DNA of 64,000 bases from Promethearchaeia archaeon (GCA_029856045.1 JAHQWG010000028.1:256001-320000), one strand, 5' to 3'; positions 42,598 to 64,000 are shown, numbered from the stretch's first letter. Program-made: numbers and translations. The notes: generated from the letters alone by a model not told the origin.

Positions 42598-44025
42598 ATG
42601 ATTTTTATGTCAGATTCAGCTAAAAACATAATAAAATTTCTTTGTGATCGGTTTTTTGAATTAGATTATTATCCAACCAGTTTAAGTGCACTATTGGATT
42701 TACCAATAGAGAAGTTGAGGGATTTTACACAAAAAGATATCTCTAAATTTAACAAGATAGATATTAAAATATTACGTGATTTAACCACAATTAGTGAAGA
42801 AGAGTTTTTAGAACTTGCAACGCTAACAAACATGGATTCAAATGTATTAAATAATGCAAAAATTGCCGCTACTTTAATAGCAAATGCATGGACTAAAAGA
42901 AAAGAATATATAAAAAAATCTCAGAGTAAAATCGTTGTAGCAGGTCTTGATTATGCAGGAAAAACATCTCTTATTAATAGATTAATGCATGATCATACTC
43001 CTGGGGATGTGATTAATTTAGAGCCTACAATAGGCGCAAATATCCAAGAATTTGAATCGGATAATTTAAACTTGATAATATGGGATCTTGGAGGGCAAAA
43101 AAGTAATTTAGAGGAATATATCCAAGAACCAGAGAAATTTTTTATCCAGCTAGATGTTTTATTTTTTGTATTTGATGCTCAAGATGATGTTCGCTATGAA
43201 GTTGCTCTTAAATATTTAAATGATCTCTTAGAAATTCTTGAATTTATAAAAGAAATTCCCCATATCTTAATTCTTATAAATAAAGTAGATCCTGACATCG
43301 AAAAAGATCCCGATTTTCAAATCAAACTTGAATATTTATCTGATAAAATTACAAGAATCTTTCTTAAGAAACCAAAAAATGTAAACTATGAAATAATACA
43401 AACAAGTATTTATAATATTTATTCCCATGAGCCTGAAATCGTAAAAACCATAAAAAATGTTTTTTCAAAAGATATTATTGCGAAGAAAGAAAAAAAAGAA
43501 ATGGAAATTGATGAAAAACTTCAGAAAATATTGGATATTAATTTTAAATTAATGGATAAAGTTGTTTCTGAACTCTCTGACATAAAAAGAGTTTTATATA
43601 AATTAGCACCATCAGATCTTAAACAATCAATCTATGCTGTTCCTTTTGATAAAGTTCCCTCTGAATATGTATCAACTCCCAAAAAAATCGCAAAAAAGCC
43701 TATAATTGCAAAAATTGAAAAGGAAAAACCTAAAAAAAAGAAAAAACCTAAAAAACCAGGGGTTCCTACTAAAATTCCTAAACCTATAAAATTATCTCCA
43801 CCGGCATCCAAAATTGAAGAAACAATGGATAAATTAAGTCAAAAATTTGAAGAAAGCGAACAAAGAATGGCATTGGAAAATTTAACACCACCCAAACCTC
43901 CTCCAAAAGCACCTGCAATTCCATCAACAACCCCACATAACATTATTAATCCTCGCAGCCAAATAATGTCAGAGTTAAAAGATATCTTCAAAAAAAAGGG
44001 AATCGTGAAAAAAGAAATTGTCTAA
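42598..44025 (+). CDS. Multidomain Arf-like small GTPase with Lys/Pro-rich C-terminal tail
   Basis: GLDYAGKTS, PTIG, WDLGGQ, NKVD. About 105 aa helical N-domain and a PPKPPPKAP tail. Confidence 0.85.
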   Translation: MIFMSDSAKNIIKFLCDRFFELDYYPTSLSALLDLPIEKLRDFTQKDISKFNKIDIKILRDLTTISEEEFLELATLTNMDSNVLNNAKIAATLIANAWTKRKEYIKKSQSKIVVAGLDYAGKTSLINRLMHDHTPGDVINLEPTIGANIQEFESDNLNLIIWDLGGQKSNLEEYIQEPEKFFIQLDVLFFVFDAQDDVRYEVALKYLNDLLEILEFIKEIPHILILINKVDPDIEKDPDFQIKLEYLSDKITRIFLKKPKNVNYEIIQTSIYNIYSHEPEIVKTIKNVFSKDIIAKKEKKEMEIDEKLQKILDINFKLMDKVVSELSDIKRVLYKLAPSDLKQSIYAVPFDKVPSEYVSTPKKIAKKPIIAKIEKEKPKKKKKPKKPGVPTKIPKPIKLSPPASKIEETMDKLSQKFEESEQRMALENLTPPKPPPKAPAIPSTTPHNIINPRSQIMSELKDIFKKKGIVKKEIV

Positions 44026-46080: not shown

Positions 46081-46632
46081 TTGAAAGATGCCACATTTAA
46101 AATTTGCATTTTTGGAGACGGAGGTGTGGGTAAAACATCTTTGACCAAAAAATATGTTACTGGCTTATTTGATCCTGATTTGAAATTTACAATTGGACTG
46201 GATTTTTATGTGAAAAACCTAGAAGTTAATGAAAAGTTAATATCTTTACAAATCTGGGACTTTGCTGGTGAATCTCGATTTAGATTTCTTTTACCCGACT
46301 ATGTAAAAGGGGCATCTGGAGCAATTTTTATGTACGATATTACTCGATACTCATCCCTAAAAAATATGGATGATTGGTTGCTTGTTTTTAATCAAGGTTT
46401 AATTAAAACTGATAAGCAAATGCCTATTATTATGGTCGGAGGAAAAGCAGATCTCATTCAGAGACGGGCAATTCAGAGTGAAGACGCTATTGAGATCGCG
46501 AAAAAGCAAAAATTTATTGGATTTATTGAATGTTCCTCTAAAACAGGAGAAAATGTAGAAAAAATATTTATTACATTAGCTAATATAATGATGAAAGAAG
46601 CAGGTTTAACCCAAGATAATATTTTGTTATAA
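46081..46632 (+). CDS. Rab-like small GTPase
   Basis: GDGGVGKTS, TIGLDF, LQIWDFAGE, GKAD, ECSSKTG. No C-terminal Cys. Confidence 0.92.
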   Translation: MKDATFKICIFGDGGVGKTSLTKKYVTGLFDPDLKFTIGLDFYVKNLEVNEKLISLQIWDFAGESRFRFLLPDYVKGASGAIFMYDITRYSSLKNMDDWLLVFNQGLIKTDKQMPIIMVGGKADLIQRRAIQSEDAIEIAKKQKFIGFIECSSKTGENVEKIFITLANIMMKEAGLTQDNILL

Positions 46633-48534: not shown

Positions 48535-48906
48535 TTAAGATAAAAATTCTTTTATAACTTCTTTGAATTCCTTGAGATTTAATGGTTTTGAGAGCGATTT
48601 ATTAAACCTGGCACTGGCAAATACGGATTCCCTATTACCTTCAACTGGAGAAGAAGAGGCGGCAATGATTGGAGTCTCTTTAAATTTATCTATTTTACGG
48701 AGTTCTTTACAAATATCAATTCCTTTTAATTTTGGAAGGTTATTATCTAAAATAATAAGATCAGGATTCTCAGATTTTATCATTTCTAAGCCTTTATCTC
48801 CCCGAGTTTCATAGAAAACTTTAATATTTGGGATTTTCTTGAAGATAGCTTTATATAATTTGATATTGGTTTCGTTATCTTCGATAATAAAAATTTTTTT
48901 TGTCAA
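48535..48906 (-). CDS. Single-domain response regulator
   Basis: IEDN, LIILD, KP. Confidence 0.88.
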   Translation of the reverse strand: MTKKIFIIEDNETNIKLYKAIFKKIPNIKVFYETRGDKGLEMIKSENPDLIILDNNLPKLKGIDICKELRKIDKFKETPIIAASSSPVEGNRESVFASARFNKSLSKPLNLKEFKEVIKEFLS

Positions 48907-49004
48907 TGATTTTCCCTCTTATACTAAATTATAAACTTTTTGTCAAATAATAACATAATAATAATAAATTATTTCTATTTAAATTAAATGGAGAAAAACT
49001 TCAA

Positions 49005-49931
49005 TTGAAATATATTTTTGGTCCAGTTCCATCTCGACGGTTGGGAAATTCATTAGGGGTTGATCCAATCCCTTCTAAAACTTGTAATTTTTCATGTGTT
49101 TATTGTCAATTAGGAAGAACAACAAACTTAACAAATACAAGAAAAAATTTTTTTCCAAAAGAAGATATAATTCAAGAAATGAAACTATCATTAAAAATTC
49201 ACGAAAAAACGATGGATTTTTTAACTTTTGTAGGAAGTGGAGAACCAACATTATATAAGGATTTGAAAGATCTTATTTTAGTGGCAAAACGATTGACAAA
49301 GAAACCAGTTTGTGTAATAACCAATGGAGCATTATTGTATGATCAGGAAGTGCAAAATACTCTGATGGAAGCAGATGTTATTATGCCAAGTTTAGATGCA
49401 GGAGATGAAAAAATGTTTAAAAGGATTAATCGCCCTCATCCTGATATAAAATTTAATAAAATGGTTGAAGGGTTGATTGAATTTAGAAAAAAATTTTCCG
49501 GTAAAATCTGGATGGAGATAATGTTAATGGATGAAATTAATGATGGAATCGAATCACTTAAATTGACTAAAGTAATCCTAAATCAGATTAATCCAGACCG
49601 TACATACATTAATGTACCTATAAGACCTCCTGCAGAATCTTGGGTAAAAAAGCCAAGTAAAGAATCAATTGAAAGATGTAAGGACATTTTAGGTGAAATC
49701 TATAATATCTCTTTTCCTGAAGAAGGACAATTTTTTAGTCCAAGTTCTGACTTAGAAAATGAAATTTTATTATTAATAGAAAGACATCCAATGAGGCATG
49801 AGCAAATTCTTAAAACATTTTCAAATTTCTCTGAAAAGAAAATATTAACAATCCTAAATAAATTAGAAAAGGAAGGGAAAGTAATAAAAAAGAAATATGA
49901 TGAGGTAATATTCTGGAATTTCATTCCGTAG
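49005..49931 (+). CDS. Radical SAM protein
   Basis: FGPVPSRRLG, CNFSCVYC, GSGEPTL. Confidence 0.88.
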   Translation: MKYIFGPVPSRRLGNSLGVDPIPSKTCNFSCVYCQLGRTTNLTNTRKNFFPKEDIIQEMKLSLKIHEKTMDFLTFVGSGEPTLYKDLKDLILVAKRLTKKPVCVITNGALLYDQEVQNTLMEADVIMPSLDAGDEKMFKRINRPHPDIKFNKMVEGLIEFRKKFSGKIWMEIMLMDEINDGIESLKLTKVILNQINPDRTYINVPIRPPAESWVKKPSKESIERCKDILGEIYNISFPEEGQFFSPSSDLENEILLLIERHPMRHEQILKTFSNFSEKKILTILNKLEKEGKVIKKKYDEVIFWNFIP

Positions 49932-49962
49932 TTATTGAATCTGATTTTATGTATTATTATAT

Positions 49963-50601
49963 TTATTTTATTGAGTTTGTTGCGAGCATCTCATCAAGGG
50001 CTTTAGTTATTTCTTTACATGATTCAAGCATCATTTCTGTGTAATTCACAACTGTTTGCTCAGATAGATTTCCTTGTTTTTTCCCTTCTAAAATTAATTC
50101 ACAAAATCCTTGAATAGTATTAATTCCGCTTCTAATTTGCATAGTAAATGATTCTAATGGCAAGACTTCTTCCTTTTTCATATATATCTCATTTATTTCA
50201 CTAAAAAATTTCTTAAATGATTTTATATCATCTGATAAAATTTGTTTGTTTCCTAATTTTAGGAATTCCATTTCAATTCTTCGGAAATGAATTATTGGAA
50301 TTAGCGGATATGCTACATCCCGAAGAATTATCAGTGAATATAATTGTTTCCCTCCCCGAGCGCTAGGATCTTCAACTTCTATTTTACAGATCTGGGAATA
50401 AAATTGACTATAATCCAAAATGACAAATTTATTTTTAGTATTTAATGCATCTCTCAAAAGATTTTTGACAAATTGCTCTTCCTTAAGTGGAAAAGATGAA
50501 TATAAAGTTCTGGGACCCAAAATTTGATCATATTTTCCAATAATTAAAATAAATTGATATTTATCCAATCCTTCTTTAAAATTTAGGTAATCATCAGACA
50601 T
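49963..50601 (-). CDS. Folliculin-like longin/uDENN domain fused to a His-less HisKA (DHp)-like domain
   Basis: YDQILGPRTL and DPSARGG..YSLII motifs. C-terminal FTMQIRSGINTIQGFCELIL aligns to the H-box helix. Confidence 0.65.
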   Translation of the reverse strand: MSDDYLNFKEGLDKYQFILIIGKYDQILGPRTLYSSFPLKEEQFVKNLLRDALNTKNKFVILDYSQFYSQICKIEVEDPSARGGKQLYSLIILRDVAYPLIPIIHFRRIEMEFLKLGNKQILSDDIKSFKKFFSEINEIYMKKEEVLPLESFTMQIRSGINTIQGFCELILEGKKQGNLSEQTVVNYTEMMLESCKEITKALDEMLATNSIK

Positions 50602-50658
50602 AGCCTTCCTCCATTTTCATATTAGATTTTATTTTTATGCTGATTTCTTTGGTTATTT

Positions 50659-52965
50659 TTAATTAGTCTCACTAATTTTTTGTAATTGTTCTTCAGTTAA
50701 TGTGATTTTAGGAATTGTAAAAAAGAATGTGGTTCCTTTATCTAATTTACTTTCAAACCAAATTTCCCCTCCATGAAGATTTACTAGTCTTTTCGTTAAT
50801 GCTAAACCCAACCCTGTCCCCTGAACCTGTTTTATCTTATCACCTTCTACTCTTCCAAATTCTCTAAAGACTACATCGTAATCCTTCTTTGCAATACCAA
50901 CACCAGTATCTTTAATTTGAAATTCCCAATGATCGATTCTTTGAATACCACGAAGTGAAACATTTCCTTGCTCTGTAAATTTAAATGCATTACTTAAAAT
51001 ATTATATAATATTTGTTTGAAACGAATAGGATCAGCAGTTAAATAATCGTGTTCATCTATACCTTTAACTTTAAATTCCAAATTTTTGTTTGAATATAAT
51101 GGTTTTATTACTGCATTAATTTCTACAATAAATTCATTTAAATCAAATTTCTGCATATTTAATTTTAATTTTCCAGCTTCAATTTTTGAGATATCTAAAA
51201 TTGAATTTATTAAACTGAGTAAATGATCTCCTGCAGAATTAATATCATTTATAAAATCTTGTTGATCTACATTTAAATTACCATATGAACCATCTAATAA
51301 CAACTGTGAAAAACCTAATATGGCATTCAACGGTGTTCTTAATTCATGAGACATTGTAGCCATAAATCTTGATTTAATATCCAAGGAAGCAAGTAATTGA
51401 TCAAATAACATTTCTCGATTCTTTTCAAAATTTTTTCTATCAGTAATATCGGAAAAAAAAGATTGAATAATTATTTGATCTTCAATTCTTAATATGGTTG
51501 ACGTAACTTCTACATACAATAGTTTTCCATACTGTGCTTTTATCAATGCTTCGACTTTATTAGGAATTGATAAATCATAAATACCTTCTTCGTAATGTTT
51601 TTTAACTATATCTATAAATTCTGGGTCAAATAACTCGTATATATTGTGTGTTAATAATTCTTCTCGATTATAGTTGAATAAATTCTCTGTTTCTCTATTA
51701 GCCTTTAAAATTTCACCCTTTTGATTTAATAGAAAAATTCCCAATGGAGCTGTTTCATTAAGCGCATCTATTTCTTGTAATGTTTTCTCTAATTTTTTTA
51801 TTTCTTTCTCAGACTGTTTTTGAGCGGTAATATCTTGTATCATCAATTGTACAATATTTTTCTCCCCCATTTTAAATAAAGAAGATTGTATATTCACCCA
51901 AGCAATGTTCCCATCCTTTTTCTTAATTTGAATTTCAAGAGGCGTTGGAGCATTTCCATCATATATATCTTTATATTTTTCTTTTATATCTGAAAGACTT
52001 GATGAAGGAAGAATAGGTGTTTCATAATATCTTTTATTGATTAACTCTTCCTTTTTATATCCAAATATTTTTTCGGTAGTATTATTGCAATCAATAATCA
52101 CACCTTCCAAATTAAGTAGGATTATGGAATTTGGAGAATTTTCAAATAGATATCTGAATTTTTCTTCTGACTCTTTTTTCTTTTTTTCCGTCTTCTTGCG
52201 TTCCGTAATATCTTCGCAATTAGTTAGGAGTACATTTTTACCACCCAACTCTATTAAGTCTATATTCATTAGAGCTGTATAAATTGTGCCGTCTTTTTTT
52301 TTCAGTTTTACTTCGAAATTATAGACCTTATCAGTTTCATGCAATTTATTAAGCAATTTTTTACGTTCATTTGGATCAACATAAGTAGAAATAAGTCTAT
52401 GAGTGTTTAACTCATCTAAGGTAAAACCTGTTATTTCTTGCATTTTTTTGTTCATAGCAAGAATATTACCCTCAAGGTCAGCAATCCCAATCCCTATTGG
52501 AGAAGAATTAAATAAAAATTGATATTTTTCCTCAGATTTTTGTATCTGGGTAGTTAATTTTTCCATTTTAATCCATGTTCGATTTCTTTCAATAGCATAT
52601 TGGATTGAACGTAATAATAGATTACTATTAATCTCATTTTTAATCAAGTAATCTTGAGTTCCTGCTTTAACCGCTTCTACACCTATTTGAAAACCATCAT
52701 TTACAGTTAGAACAATAACAGGAATATTTTGAACCTTTTCACAAGTCTTAAATACAGTATTAAGTCCAAAACTATCTGGAAGGTTTATATCTAAGAGAAT
52801 TACGTCATAATTTCTATTATCAATATGGTTAAATCCTTTCTTAAGGGTATCAGCCCAAACCAAATTAAATTTTAAATTTTTAATCTTTTTTAGCATTTCT
52901 TCTATTAATCGAACATCACCAGGATTATCTTCGATTAACAGAATATTAATTAAATTATCTAACAT
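50659..52965 (-). CDS. Hybrid histidine kinase REC-PASx3-HisKA-HATPase
   Basis: EDNPGD/LLD receiver, three PAS domains ending DIT, SHELRTPL, NAFKFT, DTGVG, GTGLGL. Confidence 0.93.
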   Translation of the reverse strand: MLDNLINILLIEDNPGDVRLIEEMLKKIKNLKFNLVWADTLKKGFNHIDNRNYDVILLDINLPDSFGLNTVFKTCEKVQNIPVIVLTVNDGFQIGVEAVKAGTQDYLIKNEINSNLLLRSIQYAIERNRTWIKMEKLTTQIQKSEEKYQFLFNSSPIGIGIADLEGNILAMNKKMQEITGFTLDELNTHRLISTYVDPNERKKLLNKLHETDKVYNFEVKLKKKDGTIYTALMNIDLIELGGKNVLLTNCEDITERKKTEKKKKESEEKFRYLFENSPNSIILLNLEGVIIDCNNTTEKIFGYKKEELINKRYYETPILPSSSLSDIKEKYKDIYDGNAPTPLEIQIKKKDGNIAWVNIQSSLFKMGEKNIVQLMIQDITAQKQSEKEIKKLEKTLQEIDALNETAPLGIFLLNQKGEILKANRETENLFNYNREELLTHNIYELFDPEFIDIVKKHYEEGIYDLSIPNKVEALIKAQYGKLLYVEVTSTILRIEDQIIIQSFFSDITDRKNFEKNREMLFDQLLASLDIKSRFMATMSHELRTPLNAILGFSQLLLDGSYGNLNVDQQDFINDINSAGDHLLSLINSILDISKIEAGKLKLNMQKFDLNEFIVEINAVIKPLYSNKNLEFKVKGIDEHDYLTADPIRFKQILYNILSNAFKFTEQGNVSLRGIQRIDHWEFQIKDTGVGIAKKDYDVVFREFGRVEGDKIKQVQGTGLGLALTKRLVNLHGGEIWFESKLDKGTTFFFTIPKITLTEEQLQKISETN

Positions 52966-53157
52966 ATTTTTATTTTTATTTTTTGTTTAGTTTAATTAAT
53001 AATTACGATAATATGAAAAATGATAATTTTTAATGTTATAGAAATATTGGATGAGAGAGAGATGCATAGATTATTCCACTTTTTTTTACATTAGAAAATT
53101 TTTTAAATTTATTATGTGAATACCATTAGCATTTTCTTTCAATTATAATTTATCAAA

Positions 53158-53616
53158 TTAAGTTATTTCATGCCCATCAGGTGGTAATTTGACAATCGAA
53201 AACCAGAAATCTCCAATAGATTTCACCACTTTTATAAATTGTACCATACCTATAGGTTTGGAGATATAACAGTTCGCATGTAAATTGTATGTTTTTATAA
53301 TATCCTCCTGAGATTTAGAAGTTGTTAAAACTACGACCGGAATTCGCCTTAAATCTTTATCTTGCTTAATTTCAGCTAAAACCTCACGTCCGTCTTTCTT
53401 AGGTAGATTTAAATCAAGTAAAATTACATCAGGTCGTGGTGAATTATTAAATTTTCCTTTTTTATATAAAAAATCTATTGCTTCTATACCATCCAATGCT
53501 ACGTGTAATTTATTGGCAATTTTACATTCTTTAAGAGCTTCTTTTGTCAAACGCACATCTCCTGGATTATCTTCAATTAGCAAAATTTCTATCATTTTAT
53601 ATTTTTGTTTTGTCAA
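53158..53616 (-). CDS. Rcp1-like single-domain response regulator
   Basis: EDNPGD, LLDLNLPKKDG, LTTS, ANCYISKP, DFW. Confidence 0.92.
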   Translation of the reverse strand: MTKQKYKMIEILLIEDNPGDVRLTKEALKECKIANKLHVALDGIEAIDFLYKKGKFNNSPRPDVILLDLNLPKKDGREVLAEIKQDKDLRRIPVVVLTTSKSQEDIIKTYNLHANCYISKPIGMVQFIKVVKSIGDFWFSIVKLPPDGHEIT

Positions 53617-53663
53617 AACTTTTACCTTATTTTTTTCTTTAAATTTCTTCTTTTTTCATATAA

Positions 53664-56345
53664 TTATTTTTTTATTGGAATAGTAAAATGAAATGTTGAA
53701 CCCTTTCCAACTTCTGATTCAACCCAGATTTTTCCATTATGTCTTTCTATAATTCTTTTACATAGGGCTAAACCTATTCCTGTGCCAGGATATTCAGATT
53801 TTGAATGTAAACGTTGAAAAATAATAAAAATACGATCAAAATATTCTGGATCTATGCCGATCCCGTTATCTTTTACTGAAAATTGCCAGTTTTTTTTAAT
53901 CTTTTTCGCCGAAATATGTATACGCACGGGATCTTCACTGCGGAATTTTATTGCATTACCAATCAAATTTTGAAACACTTGCAGAAGTTGTGTTTTATCT
54001 ACCATTACATTTGGTAAATAATCATAGGTTATCTTTACATCTATTTCTCTTATAATCTTATGTAGATTTAAAAGAACATCTTTTAAAACCTCTTCACAGT
54101 TAGTAAATTCAAAAGGATTACCACGAGTCTGAATTCTTGAATATTCTAATAAATTTTCTATAAGAACTTTCATATTATTTGCACCATCTACAGCATATTT
54201 AATGAACTCATTTGCATCCTCATCTAATTTATCTTTATAACGCTTTGCTAGGAGTTGGGTATAACTTGCCACCATTCTTAATGGTTCTTGTAAGTCATGA
54301 GATGCAATATAAGCAAATTGTTGTAATTCTTCATTGGAACACTTTAAATCGGCCATAATTTGTTGTAATTCTTTTTCTTTCTTCCTGCGCTCGGCAATAT
54401 CTCGGAAGATAAGGATAACACCTATAATATTACCTTTATCATTCTTTATTGGTGCGCCACTATCAGCGATCGGTATTTCCTTTCCATTTTTCGCTATTAA
54501 GATAGTATTATTCGCCAGACCGACAATAAATCCTTCTCGAAGGACTCTAGATACAGGATTTTCAACAGATTTACGCGTTTCCTCTTTAATGATATTAAAA
54601 ATATATTGTATGGGTTTTTCTATAGCTTCTTCTAACTTCCAGCCAGTCAAAGACTCGGCAATTGGATTTAAAAATGATACCTTACTTTTTATGTCAGTAG
54701 TAATTACTGCATCCCCAATACTTCTGAGTGTTGTGGAAAGCCATTCTTCACTCTCTTTTAATCTTTCTTCGGATTTTTGGAGCTTTTGAGTGCGCTTCTC
54801 TACCAATTCTTCAAGATGATCACGATATTTTCTCAATTCCTTCTCCGTTTTTTTACGCTCGGTAATGTCTATAAAAGAAGCCATCCTACCGATATCGTTC
54901 CCATCCTGATCCGTCACAACGGAAGTGGATACTTCAACAGGAAACTCCGTGCCGTCATTGCGTTGCGCAATAAATTCTTCAGTCTCGCCTTTTACCTTGT
55001 CAATAATCGTTTGCACATCAGAAAACCTCTGTACTACCTCTCTGGGAATTAATTCTCTAGCAGATTTACCGAGTAAACCTTCCTTGCTTTCATATTCAAA
55101 CATTCTCGCAAAAACTGGATTGACATACGTTATTTCTCCTTTAAGGTTCGTTATGATAACGCCGCTCACTGAAGAATCTATCGCATCGTAAGCAACGCTT
55201 AACTCTCGCTCCAACTTCTTGCGCTCGGTAATATCTTTTATAATAAATGCAATATCTATTGTCTTACCATCAGGTCCCTTTACAATAAAAGTGGTTAGTA
55301 AAATGGGAATTCTCGAACCGTCTTTTCTTATATATTCTTTTTCATACGTTTCAGGATTTCCTGTTTTTATGATCCTTTCTATTATTTTGTATTCATATTC
55401 TTCGTACTCCTCCGGAGTTATATCTTGAAATTTTTTTCTGGCTAATAATTCCTCTTTTGAATAACCCGTTAGCTCGGAAAAAGCATCATTAACATCCAAT
55501 AGCATTCCATCCAAATTAGCATAGGCTATGGCATCTTTTGAGGAGTTGAATATCCCATTGAAACGTTCTTGAACCTTTCCATTCTCCTCCTCTGCTTTCT
55601 TTCGCTCCGTAATATCCTGTCCAACTCCTTGAATCCCAATTGCCTTTCCATCAGCATCTTTTACTGCAGTAACATTCCATGAGATCAAAATCCTTTCTTT
55701 TTTACCCTTTTTCCAATAATATTGCTCAAAACCTTCTTGACTCCTATTTGGATCTATTATAACCTTCTGCCTTACGGGTTCAGCCTTTTCTAATTCATTT
55801 TTCTCAAGCATTGATCTTATATCATTACCAATCATCTCCCCTTCTTCATATCCTAATATTTTACAGGCGTATGGATTCATTAAAGTTACTCTCCACTCAT
55901 CATCGTATGCCAAAACGATGGCATTGGCATTATTTACTAGCATTTTGTAGCTATACAATTCTGCCTTTATCTTCTTACTCTCAGTAATATCTCTGAAAAC
56001 TTCAATAACTACTGGATTACCATAAAAATCTTCTACGAAAAAAGCGTCAATTCCAAAATATTTTGTTTCTTTGGTTGAAGGAAATGTTGTAATTTTTTCG
56101 AATCTCATCCTACGTTGTTCTATTGTCAAAGAGTTTTCAATAGGACAAGATTCACAAGGTTTTGAGCGCTTAAATAAAGTATTATAGCAGTTTTTTCCAA
56201 CCAAATTCTTTCCGAATTCTTTGAGAGCATTTTCATTTGCAAATAATATCTTATTCTTCTGAGAAATAACCAAAATTGGATCTTTCATATTTGAAAAGAT
56301 TAATCCTAATTCTTCTAGAGATTTTTTTAAATCTTGTGTTGCTAT
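53664..56345 (-). CDS. Multi-PAS (x5) sensor histidine kinase with a Cph1-like transmitter core
   Basis: SHDLQEPLR, NAIKF, DNGIG, FQRLH, GTGIGL. The tracked ATG is 56288. An AGGTGA SD points to ATA at 56345. Confidence 0.9.
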   Translation of the reverse strand: MATQDLKKSLEELGLIFSNMKDPILVISQKNKILFANENALKEFGKNLVGKNCYNTLFKRSKPCESCPIENSLTIEQRRMRFEKITTFPSTKETKYFGIDAFFVEDFYGNPVVIEVFRDITESKKIKAELYSYKMLVNNANAIVLAYDDEWRVTLMNPYACKILGYEEGEMIGNDIRSMLEKNELEKAEPVRQKVIIDPNRSQEGFEQYYWKKGKKERILISWNVTAVKDADGKAIGIQGVGQDITERKKAEEENGKVQERFNGIFNSSKDAIAYANLDGMLLDVNDAFSELTGYSKEELLARKKFQDITPEEYEEYEYKIIERIIKTGNPETYEKEYIRKDGSRIPILLTTFIVKGPDGKTIDIAFIIKDITERKKLERELSVAYDAIDSSVSGVIITNLKGEITYVNPVFARMFEYESKEGLLGKSARELIPREVVQRFSDVQTIIDKVKGETEEFIAQRNDGTEFPVEVSTSVVTDQDGNDIGRMASFIDITERKKTEKELRKYRDHLEELVEKRTQKLQKSEERLKESEEWLSTTLRSIGDAVITTDIKSKVSFLNPIAESLTGWKLEEAIEKPIQYIFNIIKEETRKSVENPVSRVLREGFIVGLANNTILIAKNGKEIPIADSGAPIKNDKGNIIGVILIFRDIAERRKKEKELQQIMADLKCSNEELQQFAYIASHDLQEPLRMVASYTQLLAKRYKDKLDEDANEFIKYAVDGANNMKVLIENLLEYSRIQTRGNPFEFTNCEEVLKDVLLNLHKIIREIDVKITYDYLPNVMVDKTQLLQVFQNLIGNAIKFRSEDPVRIHISAKKIKKNWQFSVKDNGIGIDPEYFDRIFIIFQRLHSKSEYPGTGIGLALCKRIIERHNGKIWVESEVGKGSTFHFTIPIKK

Positions 56346-56363
56346 TTTTTATTTCACCTTTTT

Positions 56364-56519
56364 TTAGAACCAATAATTTCTATTAAAAAATTTATTAAAT
56401 GTATTTTGAACAATTTGTCTAAATTCATTAATATTAATGGGTTTTGAAATATATTCATTAAAATCTGCTTGTAATATACGCTTCTTATATCCTTTCATCG
56501 CAAAAGAGGTAATTCCGAC
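56364..56519 (-). pseudogene. 3' remnant of a single-domain response regulator
   Basis: VGITSFAMKGYKKRILQADFNEYISKPININEFRQIV, versus IAVTSFAMKGDKERILKAGFDTYIAKPININDFRETV in 56827..57195. Confidence 0.85.
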
Positions 56520-56592
56520 ATATTCTAACGAATTTTCATCTTATTTTTATGTGATTGAATAAAATTGGCAAATTTTAATTTAACAATATCTG

Positions 56593-56608
56593 ATAACAAA
56601 TTTGTTAT
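56593..56608. promoter_or_regulatory. Perfect 16-bp palindrome ATAACAAATTTGTTAT, candidate operator
   Basis: About 22 nt downstream of a minus-strand TTTATATA box (56631-56638). The half-site recurs at 57270-57387. Confidence 0.5.
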
Positions 56609-56826
56609 AAAGAATTAATAATTGTATAACTATATAAATATACTTGTTGTAATTCTTACATCATAATATCAGTTTTTTAAAAGATTTTTTATAACGATTA
56701 AGAAGTAATAATTTAATTTTTCATGAAAAAAGTTAATTCATTAGAAAATAGTGTAAAAAATTTTCTTTAAAAAGAAATATAATCTTAAAAATTGTAATAT
56801 CAGAATTTTTATATTAAAATATAAGA

Positions 56827-57195
56827 TTAGACAATAACATTTTTGACTGTTTCCCTAAAATCGTTAATATTTATTGGTTTTGCAATGTAAGTATCGAAAC
56901 CTGCTTTCAATATACGTTCTTTATCACCTTTCATCGCGAAAGACGTGACAGCAATAATTGGAATGTTTTTATATTTTTCAAGTTTACGAAGTTCTTTACA
57001 AATATCGATTCCACTCATATCTGGTAGTTGAATGTCTAAAATTATTAGGTCTGGATTATCTGACTTTAGAGATTCAAAAGCTCGGGCACCATGCGTTTCT
57101 GCTACAATTTCAATATCAAGCATTGTATTTAGGACTGCTTTAAACAATTTCATGTTTTTTTCATTATCTTCCACAAGAAATACTCGTTTTTTCAT
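56827..57195 (-). CDS. DivK-like single-domain response regulator
   Basis: VEDN, LDIQLP, TSFAMKGD, KPI. Confidence 0.92.
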   Translation of the reverse strand: MKKRVFLVEDNEKNMKLFKAVLNTMLDIEIVAETHGARAFESLKSDNPDLIILDIQLPDMSGIDICKELRKLEKYKNIPIIAVTSFAMKGDKERILKAGFDTYIAKPININDFRETVKNVIV

Positions 57196-57269
57196 AAAAT
57201 CTTAACTCTACATTATTGTAATAATGAAATACGCATCTCTTCATCATCAAATGTTCATATATTACTATA

Positions 57270-57387
57270 ATAACAAATTTTGATAACAAATAGATACAAA
57301 ATATTAGTGATAAACATAGTATTTAAATGTTTTGTTATAATAATGTGTTTGTTAACATTGAATTCTTTTTTACAATATTATAACAAA
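57270..57387. promoter_or_regulatory. Cluster of ATAACAAA/TTTGTTAT sites in a divergent promoter
   Basis: Exact copies at 57270, 57283, 57331 (reverse) and 57380. Near-copy at 57348. Confidence 0.5.
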
Positions 57388-57622
57388 TATTTAAAAATTA
57401 AAAGAATTATATAATAATTACATATAAATAGCTGTTTGTGTGTAAAAACCGAAACATAAAAAGACAAAATAAAATTGAATAATGAGAGTTTATTAATGCA
57501 TTCAAATAGTAGGGCGGTACGGAATTTGGTTTCTTGTAAGAAAATAATCTCAATTATTTCATTAAGTTCTTTGTTTCCGAAACAATATTGAAATCCTCAT
57601 ACTAAAAATTATTTGAGAAAGA

Positions 57623-58483
57623 ATGAATAATAAGAAAACTGAAGAGATGGAAAAATATGAAAAAATGACTGGCAAACACGCAATTTGGCGTGGTGTAATA
57701 ACTGAAGGATTTAAAAAATGGCAACGAGGAGAAAAAATTTATGATAGATTTAAGGAGAGAATAGCTCTATATGTAGCTAAAGAAACTAAAGAAGAATGGC
57801 AGAATTTCATAAATAATTCAAAATATACTTCTGTTTCTAAGCTTGTGAGAGATGCAGTAAATAATTTCATTGAAAAAAAATTAAAAGTAATAGATTATAA
57901 GAATTATAGTAAAGATAATCAGCTTAGAGATCTTTCAGATATCTCACATGTTTTAAAAGAAGCATTAACTTCAATAAAAGGTTTCTCACAATTATTAATT
58001 GAAAATTATAAGGAAGAACTCAATGAGGAAATCATTTTAAAAATAAAAGAAATTTTTGATAAAAGCATCTTCCTTGAAAACAAGATTAATGAATCTTTAG
58101 AATATTCTCAAACTAAAAAATCACAATACGACATTTTATTAATTGAAGATGATATTTCAACAATAAAATTATTAACATCATTTTTTGAAAGGAAAGGTTA
58201 TAGTTGTAAAGGTGTCATAAGTGGTTCTAGAGGATTGGATGAATTGAAGAGAAATATTCCAAAAATAATTTTATTAGACATTATTTTACCTGATATTAAT
58301 GGATTTGAAGTTTGCAAAATAATAAAATCTAATAAAGAATATCAAAATATTCCCATCTTTCTATTAACTGCTGTATCAAGTCTAAAAGTTGAGCATCTTA
58401 TTAAAAAAGCAAAAGTAGATGGTTATATCTCAAAACCTTTTGATTTTTCGGATTTTAATATAATATTGGAATACTTACATTAA
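57623..58483 (+). CDS. RHH-DHp(HisKA)-receiver protein
   Basis: ERIALYV..KEEW..SVSKLVRDAV (RHH-like), ISHVLKEALTSIKGF (H-box), IEDD/LLD/LTA/KP receiver. No ATPase domain. Confidence 0.75.
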   Translation: MNNKKTEEMEKYEKMTGKHAIWRGVITEGFKKWQRGEKIYDRFKERIALYVAKETKEEWQNFINNSKYTSVSKLVRDAVNNFIEKKLKVIDYKNYSKDNQLRDLSDISHVLKEALTSIKGFSQLLIENYKEELNEEIILKIKEIFDKSIFLENKINESLEYSQTKKSQYDILLIEDDISTIKLLTSFFERKGYSCKGVISGSRGLDELKRNIPKIILLDIILPDINGFEVCKIIKSNKEYQNIPIFLLTAVSSLKVEHLIKKAKVDGYISKPFDFSDFNIILEYLH

Positions 58484-58486
58484 TTT

Positions 58487-60493
58487 TTAATCTTTTAAAA
58501 TGGGAAGAGAAAAATAAAATTTACTTCCTCTATTTCTTCCTTCTGATGCCATCCAGATATTTCCCTCGTGTAAATCAATAATCTTTTTCGCAATATATAG
58601 ACCGAGCCCTGTACCCTCAATTCTAACATCCCAACCTTGACCATATCTTTCAATTTTTCCAAATTGTTTAAATAATTGATTCTTTTCCTCAGCGGAAAAC
58701 CCAATTCCATTATCTTCTATTGAGATTATGAAAAAGTTAGATTTTACTTCAGAAAAGATTTTAATTTCTCCTCCAGGAGGAGTGTAATTAATTGCGTTTA
58801 ATAATAAATTTGAAAAGACTTCATAAATCCGCTGTTTATCAAAAGTTGTAATTAAATTATTATCAATATTTAAGGAAATAGATTGGTTTCTCAGCTCTAA
58901 CACAGCTTGCATTTCTTTTAAGCAGGATTTGATCAATTTTGATAAATTTCCTTGTTTTAAAATTAATTTTAATTGTCCAGATTCTAATTGGGATGATTCT
59001 AGGAGAGAATTAACTATATTATCAAGGCGCAGACATCCTTGTTTAATTTCTTTTAAAATGGATATTGTCTTATTATCATATTTCTCTTCAAATTTTGTTA
59101 ATAAAAAGTCAGAGAACCCCTTAATTGAGACAAGAGGAGTTTTCAATTCATGGGAAGTTCTATTTAGTAAATTGGTTTTAAATTTATTTATTTCACTTAG
59201 TCGTATATTTTGCTCCTTTAAATTTTTCTGAATTTGCCATCTTTGTTCTTCAACCTTAATGGCACCACAAACTAAGGACAAAATCAAATGTTCTTGGTGT
59301 GAAATAGCAGGATTTTCTCTTTTTAAAATACAAATAAAACTATTAAATTTATCTTTAGACTTAATTAATCTTCCAAATCCTCCTTTTATGTTGTATTTAA
59401 TAATAAAAGGATCAGTTTTTGCATATTGGGTTTCATTTAGATTTATAAATGTTTGTATAATATTCTGTTTAAGCTCGAATGTTTCATTTGTAAAATAATT
59501 CTTTTTAAATTCTTCCTTATTGCAATTAAAATTATTATCATCACTAGAAATGATTTGATATATTTTATTTCCATTTTGCACCCTTTTTCGAATATATAAT
59601 ACACTTTCTGCTTTACTCAATTTCTTTACTGTTTGAATTAGAGTTTTAATATTCGATTGGAAATCTGGTGTAAACTTTAAAAAACTTAAATTTATTTCAT
59701 AAATTAAATTTTCATAAGTCTTTCTTTCATTAATATCTTGATAAGTTGTTTGAACATAAATATTATTTCCGAATTTTATTAAAGAGCTCTGGAGACTTAC
59801 CCAAATCTTTTGTCCATCTACATTTAGTAATTCAACTTCAATAGGACTAATTACTCCTCCTTTAATTATAGTTTCAAATCGATCTTTAAGTAGCAGTAAA
59901 ATTTCTTGAGGATATATATCAAGTTGGTTCTTAGTTTTACCAACAATTGTATCCTTTCTATATCCAAATAATCGTTCCGTTGCAGAGTTACAATCAATAA
60001 CTCTTCCTTTTAAATTTGCTAAAATGATGGCGTAGGGAGAATTTTCAAATAAGAATCGATATTTCGCTTCAGATTCTATTAATTTTTGCTCAGTTTCTTT
60101 ACGTTCAGTGATTTCTAACACAAATTCAACTGCTCCAATAATATTATCATTATTATCTTTCACTGGAGAAGCTTTTACCTTCCATACCCTTCCATCGGGA
60201 GTAGTTTGTTCTGCTTCATGAGATTGCCTTGTTTCAATAGTTTTCAGCACAGGGCAATTAGCACATGGTGCATTTCTCTGATGCCATATCTCATAGCAAT
60301 AGCCACCAATTAATTTATCAGTTGTTAGACTCACAGATTCAGAAGCGGCTTTGTTTGCCCACAAAATTTTTAATTCGTTATTATAATATAATATAAGCTC
60401 AGAAATACTGTTCAAAATAGGAGAGTTAAAAGTAATTTTAAGATTTCCTTCATTCTTTGAACTCGCATTATTTTCGAATTTTTGATTTTGCAT
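58487..60493 (-). CDS. Sensor histidine kinase PAS-PAS-GAF-like-HisKA-HATPase
   Basis: SHELKTPL, NAINYT, DNGIG, GTGLGL. The first PAS is Cys-rich. Confidence 0.9.
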   Translation of the reverse strand: MQNQKFENNASSKNEGNLKITFNSPILNSISELILYYNNELKILWANKAASESVSLTTDKLIGGYCYEIWHQRNAPCANCPVLKTIETRQSHEAEQTTPDGRVWKVKASPVKDNNDNIIGAVEFVLEITERKETEQKLIESEAKYRFLFENSPYAIILANLKGRVIDCNSATERLFGYRKDTIVGKTKNQLDIYPQEILLLLKDRFETIIKGGVISPIEVELLNVDGQKIWVSLQSSLIKFGNNIYVQTTYQDINERKTYENLIYEINLSFLKFTPDFQSNIKTLIQTVKKLSKAESVLYIRKRVQNGNKIYQIISSDDNNFNCNKEEFKKNYFTNETFELKQNIIQTFINLNETQYAKTDPFIIKYNIKGGFGRLIKSKDKFNSFICILKRENPAISHQEHLILSLVCGAIKVEEQRWQIQKNLKEQNIRLSEINKFKTNLLNRTSHELKTPLVSIKGFSDFLLTKFEEKYDNKTISILKEIKQGCLRLDNIVNSLLESSQLESGQLKLILKQGNLSKLIKSCLKEMQAVLELRNQSISLNIDNNLITTFDKQRIYEVFSNLLLNAINYTPPGGEIKIFSEVKSNFFIISIEDNGIGFSAEEKNQLFKQFGKIERYGQGWDVRIEGTGLGLYIAKKIIDLHEGNIWMASEGRNRGSKFYFSLPILKD

Positions 60494-60742
60494 ATTTTCT
60501 AACTAATTAATATTTATTCAAAAGAATCAAATGAATAATTTTAATAAAAATTAAACTTAGAAGGTTATTTTTGCTAATAGCATAAAGAAAATAATAAAAG
60601 AAGTATATTAAATTAAGCATCATAAAGTTAAAATTGGAAAAATAAGATTAAATTTTGTGCTAATAATAAAAAAACTTATATTATAATTTGTGATAATAAT
60701 AATCTAGATATGTTATAAATACAGTGAATCCTTCCTTTTTTA

Positions 60743-61618
60743 TTGGTGATTTCAATTTTGAATAATGAAAAAAAAAATAGTGAAATGGAACAATATGAAA
60801 AAGAGACAGGAAAATATGCTGTTTGGCGTGGTATCATAACTGAAGGATTTAAAAAGTGGAAAAGAGGAGAAAAGATTTATGATAGAGATAAGGAGAGAAT
60901 ATCACTCTATATATCGGAAGAAACTAAAAAAAAATGGCAAAATTTTATTGAAAGTAGCAAATATTCTTCAATTTCAAAATTGATAAGAGATGCTATGGAT
61001 TTTTTTATTAATGAGAAATTAAGAGGAGGTATTGATGAAAAACTTAAAAAATCAAGACCTTTTAAATCAATTACTGATATTTCCCATGATTTAAAAGAGG
61101 CTTTAACTACCATAAAAGGATTTTCACAGTTATTGCTTAATAACTATAAGGATGATATAAAAGAAGATGTATTATCAAAAATTAAGGAGATTTTTAATAA
61201 AAGTATATTTCTTGAAAATAAAATAAAAGAAGTCTTGGAAAAAGGAGAAAATAGAAAGACACAATATGACCTTTTATTAATTGAAGATGACCCATCGACT
61301 ATAAAATTATTAACCACGTTTTTTGAAAGTAAAGGTTATTCTAGTAGAGGGGTAATTAGTGGTTCTAAGGGAATAGAAGAATTAAAAGTAAATGTTCCAA
61401 AATTAATATTATTAGATATAATATTGCCAGATATAAATGGATATGATGTTTGTAAAATTATAAAATCTGATGAGAATCTTAAATATATTCCAGTTTTTTT
61501 CTTAACGGCAATTCCAAGTTCAGAAGTTGAGAAAAAAATTAAATTTGCTGGTGCAGATGGATATATTTTGAAACCATTTGATTTTAGTGATTTTGAAATT
61601 TTATATACATATCTATAA
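60743..61618 (+). CDS. RHH-DHp(HisKA)-receiver protein (paralog of 57623..58483)
   Basis: ERISLYISEETKKKW..SISKLIRDAM, ISHDLKEALTTIKGF, IEDD/LLD/LTA/KP. Confidence 0.75.
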   Translation: MVISILNNEKKNSEMEQYEKETGKYAVWRGIITEGFKKWKRGEKIYDRDKERISLYISEETKKKWQNFIESSKYSSISKLIRDAMDFFINEKLRGGIDEKLKKSRPFKSITDISHDLKEALTTIKGFSQLLLNNYKDDIKEDVLSKIKEIFNKSIFLENKIKEVLEKGENRKTQYDLLLIEDDPSTIKLLTTFFESKGYSSRGVISGSKGIEELKVNVPKLILLDIILPDINGYDVCKIIKSDENLKYIPVFFLTAIPSSEVEKKIKFAGADGYILKPFDFSDFEILYTYL

Positions 61619-61765
61619 ATTTTAAAATTCTCTTTTCTTAGTTACAGAAAGCGTTTCTTTTACATAATTCCATAATCGATTTAGTAATAATCAAATTAAA
61701 TAACTAAGAAATAAAGTATTTATTCAATTTATTGGCAAAATTAACTTAAAAATTTGGTTTAATTA

Positions 61766-63073
61766 ATGGTTATAGGCATAGCATTATTTAGTTGGGATAA
61801 GAAGATGGGTCCGGTTTTAGAGATTAAACATCCTGAAAATCTTGATTTATCACAAAATTTAATTAATAAAATATATATGACTCATGCTTATAGGCAGGAA
61901 AATCAAAATGAAGAGTTAATGGAAATTAATCTGGAGAATAAAATTATACTTAGCTACTGTGATATGTCTAAAGTTGCAAAATTTGGGTATGAAATAATTA
62001 TTCTTATTGTTCATGAGAAGGAGAAAATACATCTTAAAAATTTAAAATCCAAATTATTTGAATTTGCGAGAGAAGTGTTAAATAAACCTAAAATTGAGAG
62101 ACATAAGTATTTTTTTGAAAATCTCGATTTGTTTTTTAAAGAAACATTAAAGAAAAAGATATTATTAGTTGGACGAGCAGCTACAGGAAAATCTAGTATT
62201 AAGCAAGTTATTTTTGAAGGAAAGATGCCACAGGAGTTATTATCTAATCCCCTTGAGCCAACTCGTGGTTTAACACCCTCTGTTTATTCATGGTTAGATC
62301 TGGATTTGGGTATTTTCGATTCAGCTGGTCAAGAACTGGATTATTTATTAGATGATAAAAATGAACAAACCTTAGCATTCGAAAATACTGATATTATAAT
62401 ATATATGTTTGATTACCTAACGTGGGTTGAAAATAACGAAATAATAATAAAAGATATCAGAAAAATTTCAAGAATTATTAAACAAGAGTCTTATAATGCT
62501 AGGATTATATTATTTCTACATAAAATTGACTTAATTAAGGAAGAAAATAGAGAACAAAACATAAAAAATATCCAGCGAGAAATAAAAGAACAATTGAATT
62601 TACAGATTTATTTTACAAGTCTTTATCCAAATTTAATTTATAATACTTATAATGCATTTTATGAGATTTTGAGTAATTTTTCCAAAGAGACAATTTATTT
62701 TAAAGAAATTTTGGATGAAAAAATTAAAGACAGTTCAAAATCTATGTGTTTTATAACTAATCAAAACAGTAGTATAGTTGTTCAGACAATGTCTAATGAT
62801 TTCAATTTTAAATTAATCAACCAAATTCATAGATTAATTGCTCAATTTGACCAATCATTTGAAGACATGTGTATGAATGATAATATCGATTATATGATAC
62901 TTTCAAGTTTGAAAAATTTTAATATTATTATGAAATTTCTTAACCTCTCGAATTATAATCTTAAAAATTTAATTTTAATCTCTGAAATAGCTAGTATCAA
63001 TCAATTAATAGGATTTTGTGAGGAAATTAAAAGTACTTTGAATAGATATTTTTATAAAGATATTCAACTATGA
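61766..63073 (+). CDS. Longin-like + Rag/Gtr-like GTPase + roadblock-like domain protein
   Basis: N-terminal FSWDKKMGP. GRAATGKSSIKQVIF, LEPT, DSAGQ, HKID, FTSL. About 120 aa alpha/beta C-domain. Confidence 0.78.
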   Translation: MVIGIALFSWDKKMGPVLEIKHPENLDLSQNLINKIYMTHAYRQENQNEELMEINLENKIILSYCDMSKVAKFGYEIIILIVHEKEKIHLKNLKSKLFEFAREVLNKPKIERHKYFFENLDLFFKETLKKKILLVGRAATGKSSIKQVIFEGKMPQELLSNPLEPTRGLTPSVYSWLDLDLGIFDSAGQELDYLLDDKNEQTLAFENTDIIIYMFDYLTWVENNEIIIKDIRKISRIIKQESYNARIILFLHKIDLIKEENREQNIKNIQREIKEQLNLQIYFTSLYPNLIYNTYNAFYEILSNFSKETIYFKEILDEKIKDSSKSMCFITNQNSSIVVQTMSNDFNFKLINQIHRLIAQFDQSFEDMCMNDNIDYMILSSLKNFNIIMKFLNLSNYNLKNLILISEIASINQLIGFCEEIKSTLNRYFYKDIQL

Positions 63074-63082
63074 GAATCTAAA

Positions 63083-64000
63083 ATGGGTAAGAAGATAATT
63101 TTCGTTGGACCGCCTGGAGCGGGAAAAACCACCTTAAGAAAAGTTTTTTTTGAGGGAGAATCTTCTTCAAAATTATTAGATTATGCATTAGAGCCTACAC
63201 ATGGTAAAGAATCAGTTATTCTTCAGTTAAGTGAGGATGTTGGAGTGTTTGATCTAGCAGGTCAGGAAAATACAAGGTGGTTTGAAACAGATGATAAAGA
63301 AATTTTCTACGATACAAAAATTCTTATAGTAGTTATTGATATTACAACAGACCATGAAAGAATTATAGAGTTTATTAACAGAGTTATTAAAATTCGAAAT
63401 GAATTAACACCGACTGCATTTATATATATATTAATTCATAAAATTGATTTGGTAGCACAAAAAACAATCAAAGCAATAAAATATAAAATTTCTGATGTTA
63501 TTGGTGAGGAAAAGTCTGTTAAAATTGCATTTACAAGTATTCAGAAAGTATATTTCCCCTCAACATTTTCATTGTTTATGGATATCTTAGATACATGTAT
63601 AAGTGAAAGGGTAACTCCTGAAAGAATTAATTTGAATCTACTTCAAAACACTATTGATTTTTTATATGAATTACAAAAGAGTGTTTTAATTTCGAAAGAT
63701 GATTTACAGATAAGATTAAAAGCTCCTGATGAAATGATTGATTCTATAAGCAAACTATTGAGTAATAAAGGACATATTGATGTTTCAAAAATAAATGATA
63801 GAACAATTTTTAGTTTAACTGATAAAGGTAAAAATTATTTTAAAGAAATTTTAAATAAATTTTCTTTGCAAAAATTGATTAAATTTGAGAAAGAACATTA
63901 TAAGACAGAAGCCGCTTTAGGGCCAAAAGTTCCTCCATATTTAGGTTTTTTGGTGGCTGATAAAGATGGAAAAACAATAATAAATGTAGAAATATTTGAC
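63083..64000 (+). CDS. Rag/Gtr-like GTPase with winged-helix domain (runs off the window end)
   Basis: Hand translation, not in the ORF track: GPPGAGKTTLRKVFF, LEPT, DLAGQ, HKID, FTSI, then ISKDDL...KGHI...FSLTDKG, then YLGFLVADKDGKT. Confidence 0.8.
   Translation, partial: MGKKIIFVGPPGAGKTTLRKVFFEGESSSKLLDYALEPTHGKESVILQLSEDVGVFDLAGQENTRWFETDDKEIFYDTKILIVVIDITTDHERIIEFINRVIKIRNELTPTAFIYILIHKIDLVAQKTIKAIKYKISDVIGEEKSVKIAFTSIQKVYFPSTFSLFMDILDTCISERVTPERINLNLLQNTIDFLYELQKSVLISKDDLQIRLKAPDEMIDSISKLLSNKGHIDVSKINDRTIFSLTDKGKNYFKEILNKFSLQKLIKFEKEHYKTEAALGPKVPPYLGFLVADKDGKTIINVEIFD

Follow-up and report, generated by a model that had tools for sequence, protein, structure and literature searches.

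The DNA analysed here, a 64,000-nucleotide stretch from a Promethearchaeia archaeon (the window; G000:C36:256001-320000, from a host genome of 3.34 Mb with 27% G+C), carries at its distal end one copy of a conserved, accessory Lokiarchaeia signalling cassette in which two-component genes are linked to genes for Rag-like GTPases. Between 48.5 kb and the window edge, the window gene calls and Pfam matches give eleven signalling genes and one radical-SAM gene (Table 1). The principal components are two Rag-like GTPases (Rag435 and Rag501), the single-domain receivers REC122, REC152 and REC123, soluble PAS kinases, and LonDHp212, a 212-aa protein in which an NPRL2/FLCN-like longin domain is joined to a DHp-like hairpin that has lost its histidine. 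The linkage of GTPase and two-component genes is not a product of chance. Because this linkage is conserved, and because a GTPase-regulator fold and a two-component fold are united in a single protein, sequences and models together make it fairly probable that the phosphorelay and the Rag-like switches act in one pathway, with the PAS kinases and receivers working with the Rag-like pair.

The evidence for linkage comes from 19 other genomes, in which every open reading frame near the Rag435 orthologue was compared with the window proteins (genomes, loci and families are given below by our own handles). The same genes recur together in at least eight other genera of the family (f1), as they do in another two families of the order, the recurring set comprising orthologues of both Rag-like GTPases, REC122, PAS kinases and LonDHp in shuffled gene order, and the same orthologues adjoin each other in more than 20 other genomes. 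The genes for Rag435 and Rag501 orthologues (47-59% and 40-49% identical, respectively) have a REC122 orthologue and PAS kinase genes as their flanks in loci from G007, G011, G012, G013, G014, G016, G018, G019, G022, G024, G025, G027, G032 and G036. In 12 genomes from seven other genera, the REC122 orthologue (58-66% identical) is head-to-head with that of Rag435 at a distance of 150-250 bp, and within f1 one or two PAS kinases abut the opposite end of the Rag435-Rag501 pair. LonDHp orthologues (56-66% identical) are found within 15 kb of the f1 Rag loci wherever the contigs allow; in the typical case a Rag-like GTPase of ~295 aa comes next and kinases after it, in an operon-like arrangement. 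The 768-aa kinase of the window is the one that best matches the kinases next to the Rag pair of other genera, and a REC152 orthologue, 70% identical, lies within the G012 cluster.

The same associations persist at greater evolutionary distance. In f2 (genus g21, one of whose genomes is closed at 4.32 Mb), a longin-Rag protein of 25-27% identity is encoded head-to-head with a REC122-like gene, a receiver 52-56% identical to REC123 is encoded directly upstream of the Rag501 orthologue, and REC, LonDHp, kinase and GTPase genes form a co-directional run. In the third family, f4, genes for REC, Rag, GTPase, Rag and LonDHp make up one run with abutting stops and starts, and on a metagenomic contig with precomputed Pfam labels LonDHp has a Gtr1_RagA GTPase on one side and PAS, REC and kinase genes on the other. 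The unrelated flanks of the window (radical SAM, phosphoesterase, methylase) recur in the same genus only; the confinement of these three non-signalling flanks indicates that general synteny has decayed and the cassette linkage has been kept. The preliminary description of this DNA had named, as the result that would speak against its proposal, a GTPase pair and longin-DHp gene unlinked from two-component genes elsewhere; what we find is linkage in many genomes of three families, in rearranged order. Across 37 family genomes, REC122 and Rag435 are both present in ~20, both absent from ~15 and discordant in 1, and the presence or absence of LonDHp tracks this pattern. Among 301 genomes sampled across the phylum, LonDHp was detected in this order only.

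LonDHp212 consists of a longin domain (residues ~15-122) and a DHp-like hairpin (~142-208). Its AlphaFold2 (AF2) model (pLDDT 83.7) has a longin fold followed by long helices that form the hairpin, and the top solved folds (Foldseek and VIA-align) are NPRL2 in GATOR1 (Z 12.3) and FLCN (Z 11.6, root-mean-square deviation 2.7 A over 126 residues), with yeast Npr2 (Z 11.0) and a Lokiarchaeal longin as further matches of the model and Foldseek E values of 6e-5 to 2e-4. Residues 142-212 superpose on the DHp domain of HK853 (Z 8.7, 1.8 A over 69 residues). The models and fold searches thus bear out the proposal, made earlier from the window alone, of a folliculin-like longin fused to a pseudo-DHp. 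At the level of Pfam, the protein's own scores are weak (Folliculin E 1.7e-3, below the gathering score; HisKA E 0.012); in a family sample all 28 members match Folliculin at E<=1 (best 3.8e-5) and 8 of the 28 match HisKA. A near-length search returned 297 relatives, and none of the best 120 of these, at 59-96% identity, has a precomputed Pfam domain, the named ones all being 'hypothetical'. The family profile searched against the PDB yielded nothing significant.

Two motifs, G29-P30 and A81-R82-G83, are invariant in the 28 LonDHp sequences. The Gly-Pro motif stands at the start of strand 2, which begins at residue 29 in the model, and R82 is placed in the strand 4-5 loop, inside the Pfam Folliculin match (61-102); it is a candidate counterpart of the arginine fingers FLCN R164 and NPRL2 R78. 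In place of a DENN or NPRL2-specific C-domain, the C-terminal half is the DHp-like hairpin, in which the H-box is recognisable and the His position is occupied by Met154 (M or L across the family); Pfam detects no HATPase_c domain. A pairwise match (E 6e-5) and the fold match are all that points to descent of the hairpin from the DHp of the neighbouring kinase; since a genome-wide tblastn with the C-terminal half of LonDHp212 returned no kinase below E = 1, such descent is not established. A search of longer proteins turned up no fused relative of LonDHp212, kinase-longin fusions included, but this negative carries little weight. In a sister species, a 34% identical LonDHp-like stretch within a 391-aa open frame (G001:C258:701-1261) may be a longer or fused relative.

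Both Rag-like proteins match PF04670 (Gtr1_RagA) above the cut-off, and their intact G1-G5 motifs are invariant in the orthologues. In the AF2 model of Rag435 (pLDDT 83.9), a longin domain (2-118) precedes a Rag-type G domain (131-303) and a roadblock domain (307-434) with the order alpha-beta-beta-alpha-beta-beta-beta-alpha, aligned with RagA/Gtr1 over ~310 columns. The top Foldseek matches are Gtr1, RagA, RagC and the Loki RagA-like 8yl2 (E 1e-16 to 1e-14), so that model and fold searches alike back the longin-Rag-roadblock architecture ascribed to this protein. Invariant among Rag435 orthologues are W10-D11 in the longin domain, the P-loop, DxxGQE, HKxD and TS. Rag501 is laid out as a Rag-type G domain, a helical and possibly winged-helix insert, a longin/roadblock-like domain and C-terminal helices; no profile supports a winged helix, and the match of its Atlas model to fungal GTR2 clusters (residues 1-499, TM 0.40/0.56) gives indirect support for the roadblock. 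The genes of these two presumed complex partners are inherited together, Rag501 starting 9 bp after Rag435. A complex prediction for Rag435 with LonDHp212 from full-length alignments scored 0.00, a 'no answer' that counts neither for nor against binding. Within the cluster there are no Ragulator/EGO or TORC1 genes.

The two-component proteins are intact by sequence. HisKA and HATPase_c score above the Pfam cut-off in all three large kinases, and phospho-acceptor residues are retained by every cluster receiver, with REC122, REC152 and REC123 each keeping the acidic pair, the phospho-Asp, the Thr/Ser and the Lys. A sequence scan finds hydrophobic segments in none of the cassette proteins. The 668-aa kinase is intact here and survives as a 109-aa C-terminal remnant in two sister species (G004, G002; L034:13335-13664, L006:2494-2823). 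In a sister species, an extra 950-aa kinase, absent from this genome, lies between the radical-SAM gene and LonDHp (L034:2588-5440).

In the single pathway that we favour, the soluble PAS kinases would respond to a cue from inside the cell by phosphorylating the single-domain receivers, which, as stand-alone proteins without an output domain, would act by binding partners. The likely partners are the Rag-like proteins encoded alongside, REC122 pairing with Rag435 and a REC123-type receiver with Rag501, and the two GTPases would probably dimerise via their C-terminal roadblock-type domains, like eukaryotic Rags. LonDHp212 is the likely adaptor bridging both systems: its longin domain, with the invariant Gly-Pro and Arg82, would face a GTPase, and its His-less hairpin would dimerise or dock on a kinase or receiver, the phosphorylation state thereby being coupled to the nucleotide state. 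RDR286 and RDR291, two proteins of RHH-DHp-REC type described below, would form a separate, family-wide transcriptional branch that by happenstance lies inside the cassette in this genus. A more specific mechanism, in which LonDHp212 is a phosphorelay-gated GTPase-activating protein (GAP) whose Arg82 switches off one of the neighbouring Rag-like GTPases and whose hairpin recruits it to a phosphorylated receiver or kinase, appears to us rather improbable.

The signal could run in either direction, and the main rival to our reading is a reversed, conservon-like flow in which the Rag-like GTPases and the longin protein stand upstream and tune kinase activity, for example through mixed dimers of the His-less hairpin with a kinase DHp that depend on the GTP/GDP state, the receivers and RHH-DHp-REC proteins being the output. 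Actinobacterial conservons set the precedent by coupling a kinase, a roadblock protein and a small GTPase through interactions that depend on both catalytic activities; in keeping with such a flow, a kinase gene precedes LonDHp212 by 57 bp here and directly follows LonDHp in f2, and the LonDHp212 hairpin retains the kinase H-box signature minus the His. We nevertheless think it unlikely, since the tightest conserved pairing is that of receiver and GTPase rather than kinase and GTPase, and since output-less receivers require a downstream partner; that no kinase-longin fusion of the LonDHp family was found among longer proteins argues weakly in the same direction. The two gene sets might also form a co-inherited island, travelling or being regulated together and serving separate pathways with no direct cross-talk, as would fit the patchy distribution even within genera, the TnpB/IS605-type gene beside the cassette in G024 and the further GTPases of other types clustered around the region in this genome. 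This we hold to be quite unlikely, given that the linkage outlasts the shuffling of order and orientation in three families, down to 25% GTPase identity, that operon-like runs with abutting stops and starts mix both kinds of gene, and that LonDHp212 on its own fuses the two kinds of fold. As for mere adjacency, given the many small GTPases and sensors of this genome, Gtr1_RagA gives ~15 strong matches and ~25 over the cut-off in the 3.34 Mb, and a 25-kb stretch around the cluster contains five GTPase genes; chance is nonetheless barely credible, because a genome-wide search finds only 13 receiver-domain matches, 6 of them in this cluster, and because the synteny survey, in which the orthologues are neighbours across more than 20 other genomes and the unrelated flanks are not, contradicts it.

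Several observations weigh against the one-pathway reading itself. The Folliculin match of LonDHp212 falls short of the Pfam gathering score, and generic longins reach Z ~10, only ~2 Z units under NPRL2 and FLCN. A single deletion can remove adjacent genes together, so that shared presence and absence is not independent of linkage. Some 40-60% of family genomes, including several with a completeness of at least 98%, lack the cassette, and Rag435 decays in sister species, being cut to 94 aa in G001 (L005:1066-1350) and interrupted by an in-frame TGA in G002 (G002:C207:19077-20376), which suggests decay of the GTPase arm or else assembly errors. Absence from many genomes and decay in sister species together imply that the cassette is dispensable. 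The ~295-aa GTPase that follows LonDHp elsewhere is also missing here, its closest relative in this genome being Rag501. Kinase remnants, the extra kinase, the broken Rag435 and the missing GTPase mark the cassette as accessory and in flux.

RDR286 and RDR291, 65% identical paralogues, each combine a His-containing HisKA box with a receiver and have no ATPase domain. His115 is invariant in the RHH-DHp-REC family. HisKA and REC are matched in all 25 relatives, and RHH_1 in 7 of the 25, always below threshold (best E 0.0019); the family profile searched against the PDB retrieves receiver domains only. Genes of this family are present in 36 of 36 other family genomes as a tandem or divergent pair of their own, without GTPases, and a third, shorter paralogue adjoins LonDHp in three genomes. 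Their position directly upstream of the Rag pair, to which the preliminary description had drawn attention, is real in this genome, but RHH-DHp-REC genes are lodged between REC122 and Rag435 in this genus only, so that the order of RHH-DHp-REC followed by Rags is a local arrangement and the conserved neighbour of the Rags is REC122. The divergent spacer between REC122 and RDR286 contains five copies of TAACAAA/TTTGTTA within 120 bp (57271-57387), several in the form (T/G)ATAACAAA, against a window background of 0.45 per kb, and two further copies lie at 56594-56607. We rejected these repeats as a cassette-wide operator: enrichment is limited to the REC122/RDR286 spacer of this genome and is seen neither in the receiver/Rag spacers nor near the RHH-DHp-REC pairs of other genera.

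On the minus strand, the genes of the window copy follow one another in the transcription order REC122, 874-aa kinase, REC152, 768-aa kinase, LonDHp212 and REC123, with REC152 47 bp downstream of the 874-aa kinase and LonDHp212 57 bp downstream of the 768-aa kinase. The plus-strand order is RDR286, RDR291, Rag435 and Rag501, in which the minus-strand 668-aa kinase separates RDR286 from RDR291, and Rag435 begins 147 bp after RDR291. The gene list from which this analysis set out (kinases, receivers, RHH-DHp-REC proteins, the longin/DHp fusion and two Rag-like GTPases) proved correct in both positions and domains, save that the RHH domain is a sub-threshold assignment and that the second GTPase is not wholly contained in the window: Rag501 is 501 aa long in the contig and ends 588 bases beyond the edge.

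Table 1 Genes of the signalling cassette in the window, and loci elsewhere that are mentioned in the text.
Feature	Coordinates	Strand	Size and evidence
Single-domain receiver REC123	48535-48906	-	123 aa; Pfam Response_reg E 1.1e-18
Radical-SAM gene	49005-49931	+	Inside the span; convergent, between LonDHp212 and REC123
LonDHp212, NPRL2/FLCN-like longin and His-less DHp-like hairpin	49963-50601	-	212 aa
Hybrid sensor kinase REC-3xPAS-HisKA-HATPase	50659-52965	-	768 aa; Pfam
Single-domain receiver REC152	53158-53616	-	152 aa; Pfam Response_reg E 1.4e-18
Multi-PAS kinase, PAS x4-5, HisKA and HATPase_c	53664-56288	-	874 aa; Pfam
Single-domain receiver REC122	56827-57195	-	122 aa; Pfam Response_reg E 1.1e-26
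RDR286, RHH(?)-DHp(His)-REC	57623-58483	+	286 aa; Pfam REC E 1.1e-19, HisKA E 2.7e-4
PAS kinase 2xPAS-HisKA-HATPase	58487-60493	-	668 aa; Pfam
RDR291, RHH(?)-DHp(His)-REC	60743-61618	+	291 aa; Pfam REC E 9.9e-20, HisKA E 1.6e-5, RHH_1 E 0.083
Rag435, longin, Rag-type G domain and roadblock	61766-63073	+	Pfam Gtr1_RagA E 8.1e-25
Rag501, Rag-type GTPase	63083-64000, continues past edge	+	Pfam Gtr1_RagA E 3.9e-16 (full protein)
Coiled-coil protein after REC122 orthologue	L044:6904-8109, L046:8005-8943, L047:5669-6517, L038:13297-14355		
C3 locus	L003:7743-11278		REC-PAS kinase 765 aa, REC-ArsR-type regulator 279 aa, ArsR protein 115 aa

Some further genes lie beside the cassette or its relatives. 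The REC122 orthologue is followed in four other genera by a coiled-coil protein of 280-400 aa that has weak coiled-coil Pfam matches only; this protein is missing here and may be a further cassette component. The IS605 OrfB/TnpB-type gene of G024 directly adjoins the REC122 orthologue (L042:5811-7016). Upstream of the span in the window, the gene at 42598-44025 (+) encodes an Arf/Rag-like GTPase of 475 aa, helical in its N-domain and rich in Lys and Pro in its tail, whose full-length orthologue, 46% identical, stands in another genus's cassette between an RHH-DHp-REC gene and LonDHp (L038:3551-5023), so that the island here may extend back to ~42 kb; a 134-aa PAS protein is encoded at 42004-42408. 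Ras-family GTPases of 183 and 334 aa flank the region (46081-46632 and L001:12347-13351), the second being followed by a 188-aa coiled-coil protein. The only other multi-gene two-component locus of the genome, on contig C3, has no adjacent GTPase, and was rejected as a second cassette on account of its different architecture and its distance of 30 kb from the Rag-like genes of that contig. An anti-phage defence system was likewise dropped, as PADLOC models gave only generic receiver matches.

The cassette names a fixed set of candidate partners, namely a longin-Rag-roadblock protein, a second Rag, stand-alone receivers, soluble PAS kinases and a 212-aa adaptor. This bears on a stated open question: Asgard FLCN/SMCR8-type longins carry the Gly-Pro motif and an arginine, with the partner GTPase left open (Traffic 2025, PMC12290439), and for the partner GTPases and control of the FLCN/NPRL2-like longins the cassette offers testable candidates. 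If the coupling were confirmed, it would reveal how such a eukaryote-like switch could be controlled at a stage preceding TOR. Were LonDHp212 in fact a phosphorelay-gated GAP, the cassette would represent a prokaryotic forerunner of GATOR1/folliculin control of Rags, with His-Asp signalling replacing the amino-acid sensors.

The general idea of a link between two-component systems and proto-Rag switches is already in print as a surmise, and the preliminary description, which knew of no account of such a link, was mistaken on this point. Liu et al. (bioRxiv 10.1101/2020.10.19.343400) report many NPRL2-like longin fusions with two-component domains in Asgard archaea (their Fig. 5c) and surmise that growth control in these archaea is two-component-centred, with eukaryote-like regulators; bacterial conservons and the Frz/RomR/MglA system are known besides. 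The preprint also places most Asgard eukaryotic-signature genes outside conserved neighbourhoods and reports no homologue of the TOR kinase in these archaea. The cassette supports the surmise at the level of gene content and linkage and, its proteins being small and soluble, makes it testable in vitro with a handful of recombinant proteins. Like the fusions of Liu et al., LonDHp212 joins an NPRL2/FLCN-type longin to a two-component module, but here the fused part is a His-less DHp hairpin only, and the available text of the preprint contains neither the 212-aa family, nor its fixed Rag-like neighbours, nor the gene pair of receiver and longin-Rag. Our literature search found no publication combining Asgard, histidine kinase, response regulator and small GTPase, and Liu et al. 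was the only one to combine Asgard, NPRL2 and two-component systems.

Among archaeal proteins, the Rag-like GTPases of the cassette share the G domain and roadblock of the Lokiarchaeal structures 'LokiRagO' (PDB 8yl2) and 'LokiRagM' (8zla/9m28). Tran et al. 2024 (PMC10933270) describe Rag-like proteins of MK-D1, including one operonic pair predicted to dimerise via roadblock domains, and find that GTPase genes in MK-D1 are generally not in operons with regulators; unlike the MK-D1 pair, for which two-component genes are not mentioned, the pair described here lies among kinases, receivers and a longin regulator. As in the conservon (CvnA kinase, CvnB roadblock, CvnC, CvnD GTPase), a conserved gene set unites a histidine kinase, a small GTPase and a roadblock-superfamily regulator. 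The cassette GTPases, however, are of Gtr1_RagA rather than MglA type, with the roadblock fused to the GTPase, and the Pfam scans of the cluster contain no stand-alone roadblock or CvnC/DUF742; the cassette has instead soluble PAS kinases, stand-alone receivers and the longin-pseudoDHp protein. The Frz system of Myxococcus, in which receiver-domain proteins (RomR, FrzX, FrzZ) relay phosphorelay information to a small GTPase and a roadblock-type regulator (MglA/MglB), likewise sets receivers alongside such a pair, although its genes are not homologous to those of the cassette at family level and the cassette has no chemosensory kinase. Compared with eukaryotic GATOR1 (NPRL2-NPRL3-DEPDC5) and FLCN-FNIP, LonDHp212 is without the DENN/NPRL2 C-domain, the cluster is without a Ragulator or TOR context, the input is a His-Asp phosphorelay, and one Rag bears its own N-terminal longin. 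In common with them, LonDHp212 has a longin domain whose best fold matches are NPRL2 and FLCN, with the Gly-Pro motif of strand 2 and a conserved Arg at a possibly corresponding site, and has as its neighbours, as in the eukaryotic Rag setting, two paralogous Rag-type GTPases with roadblock-type C-domains.

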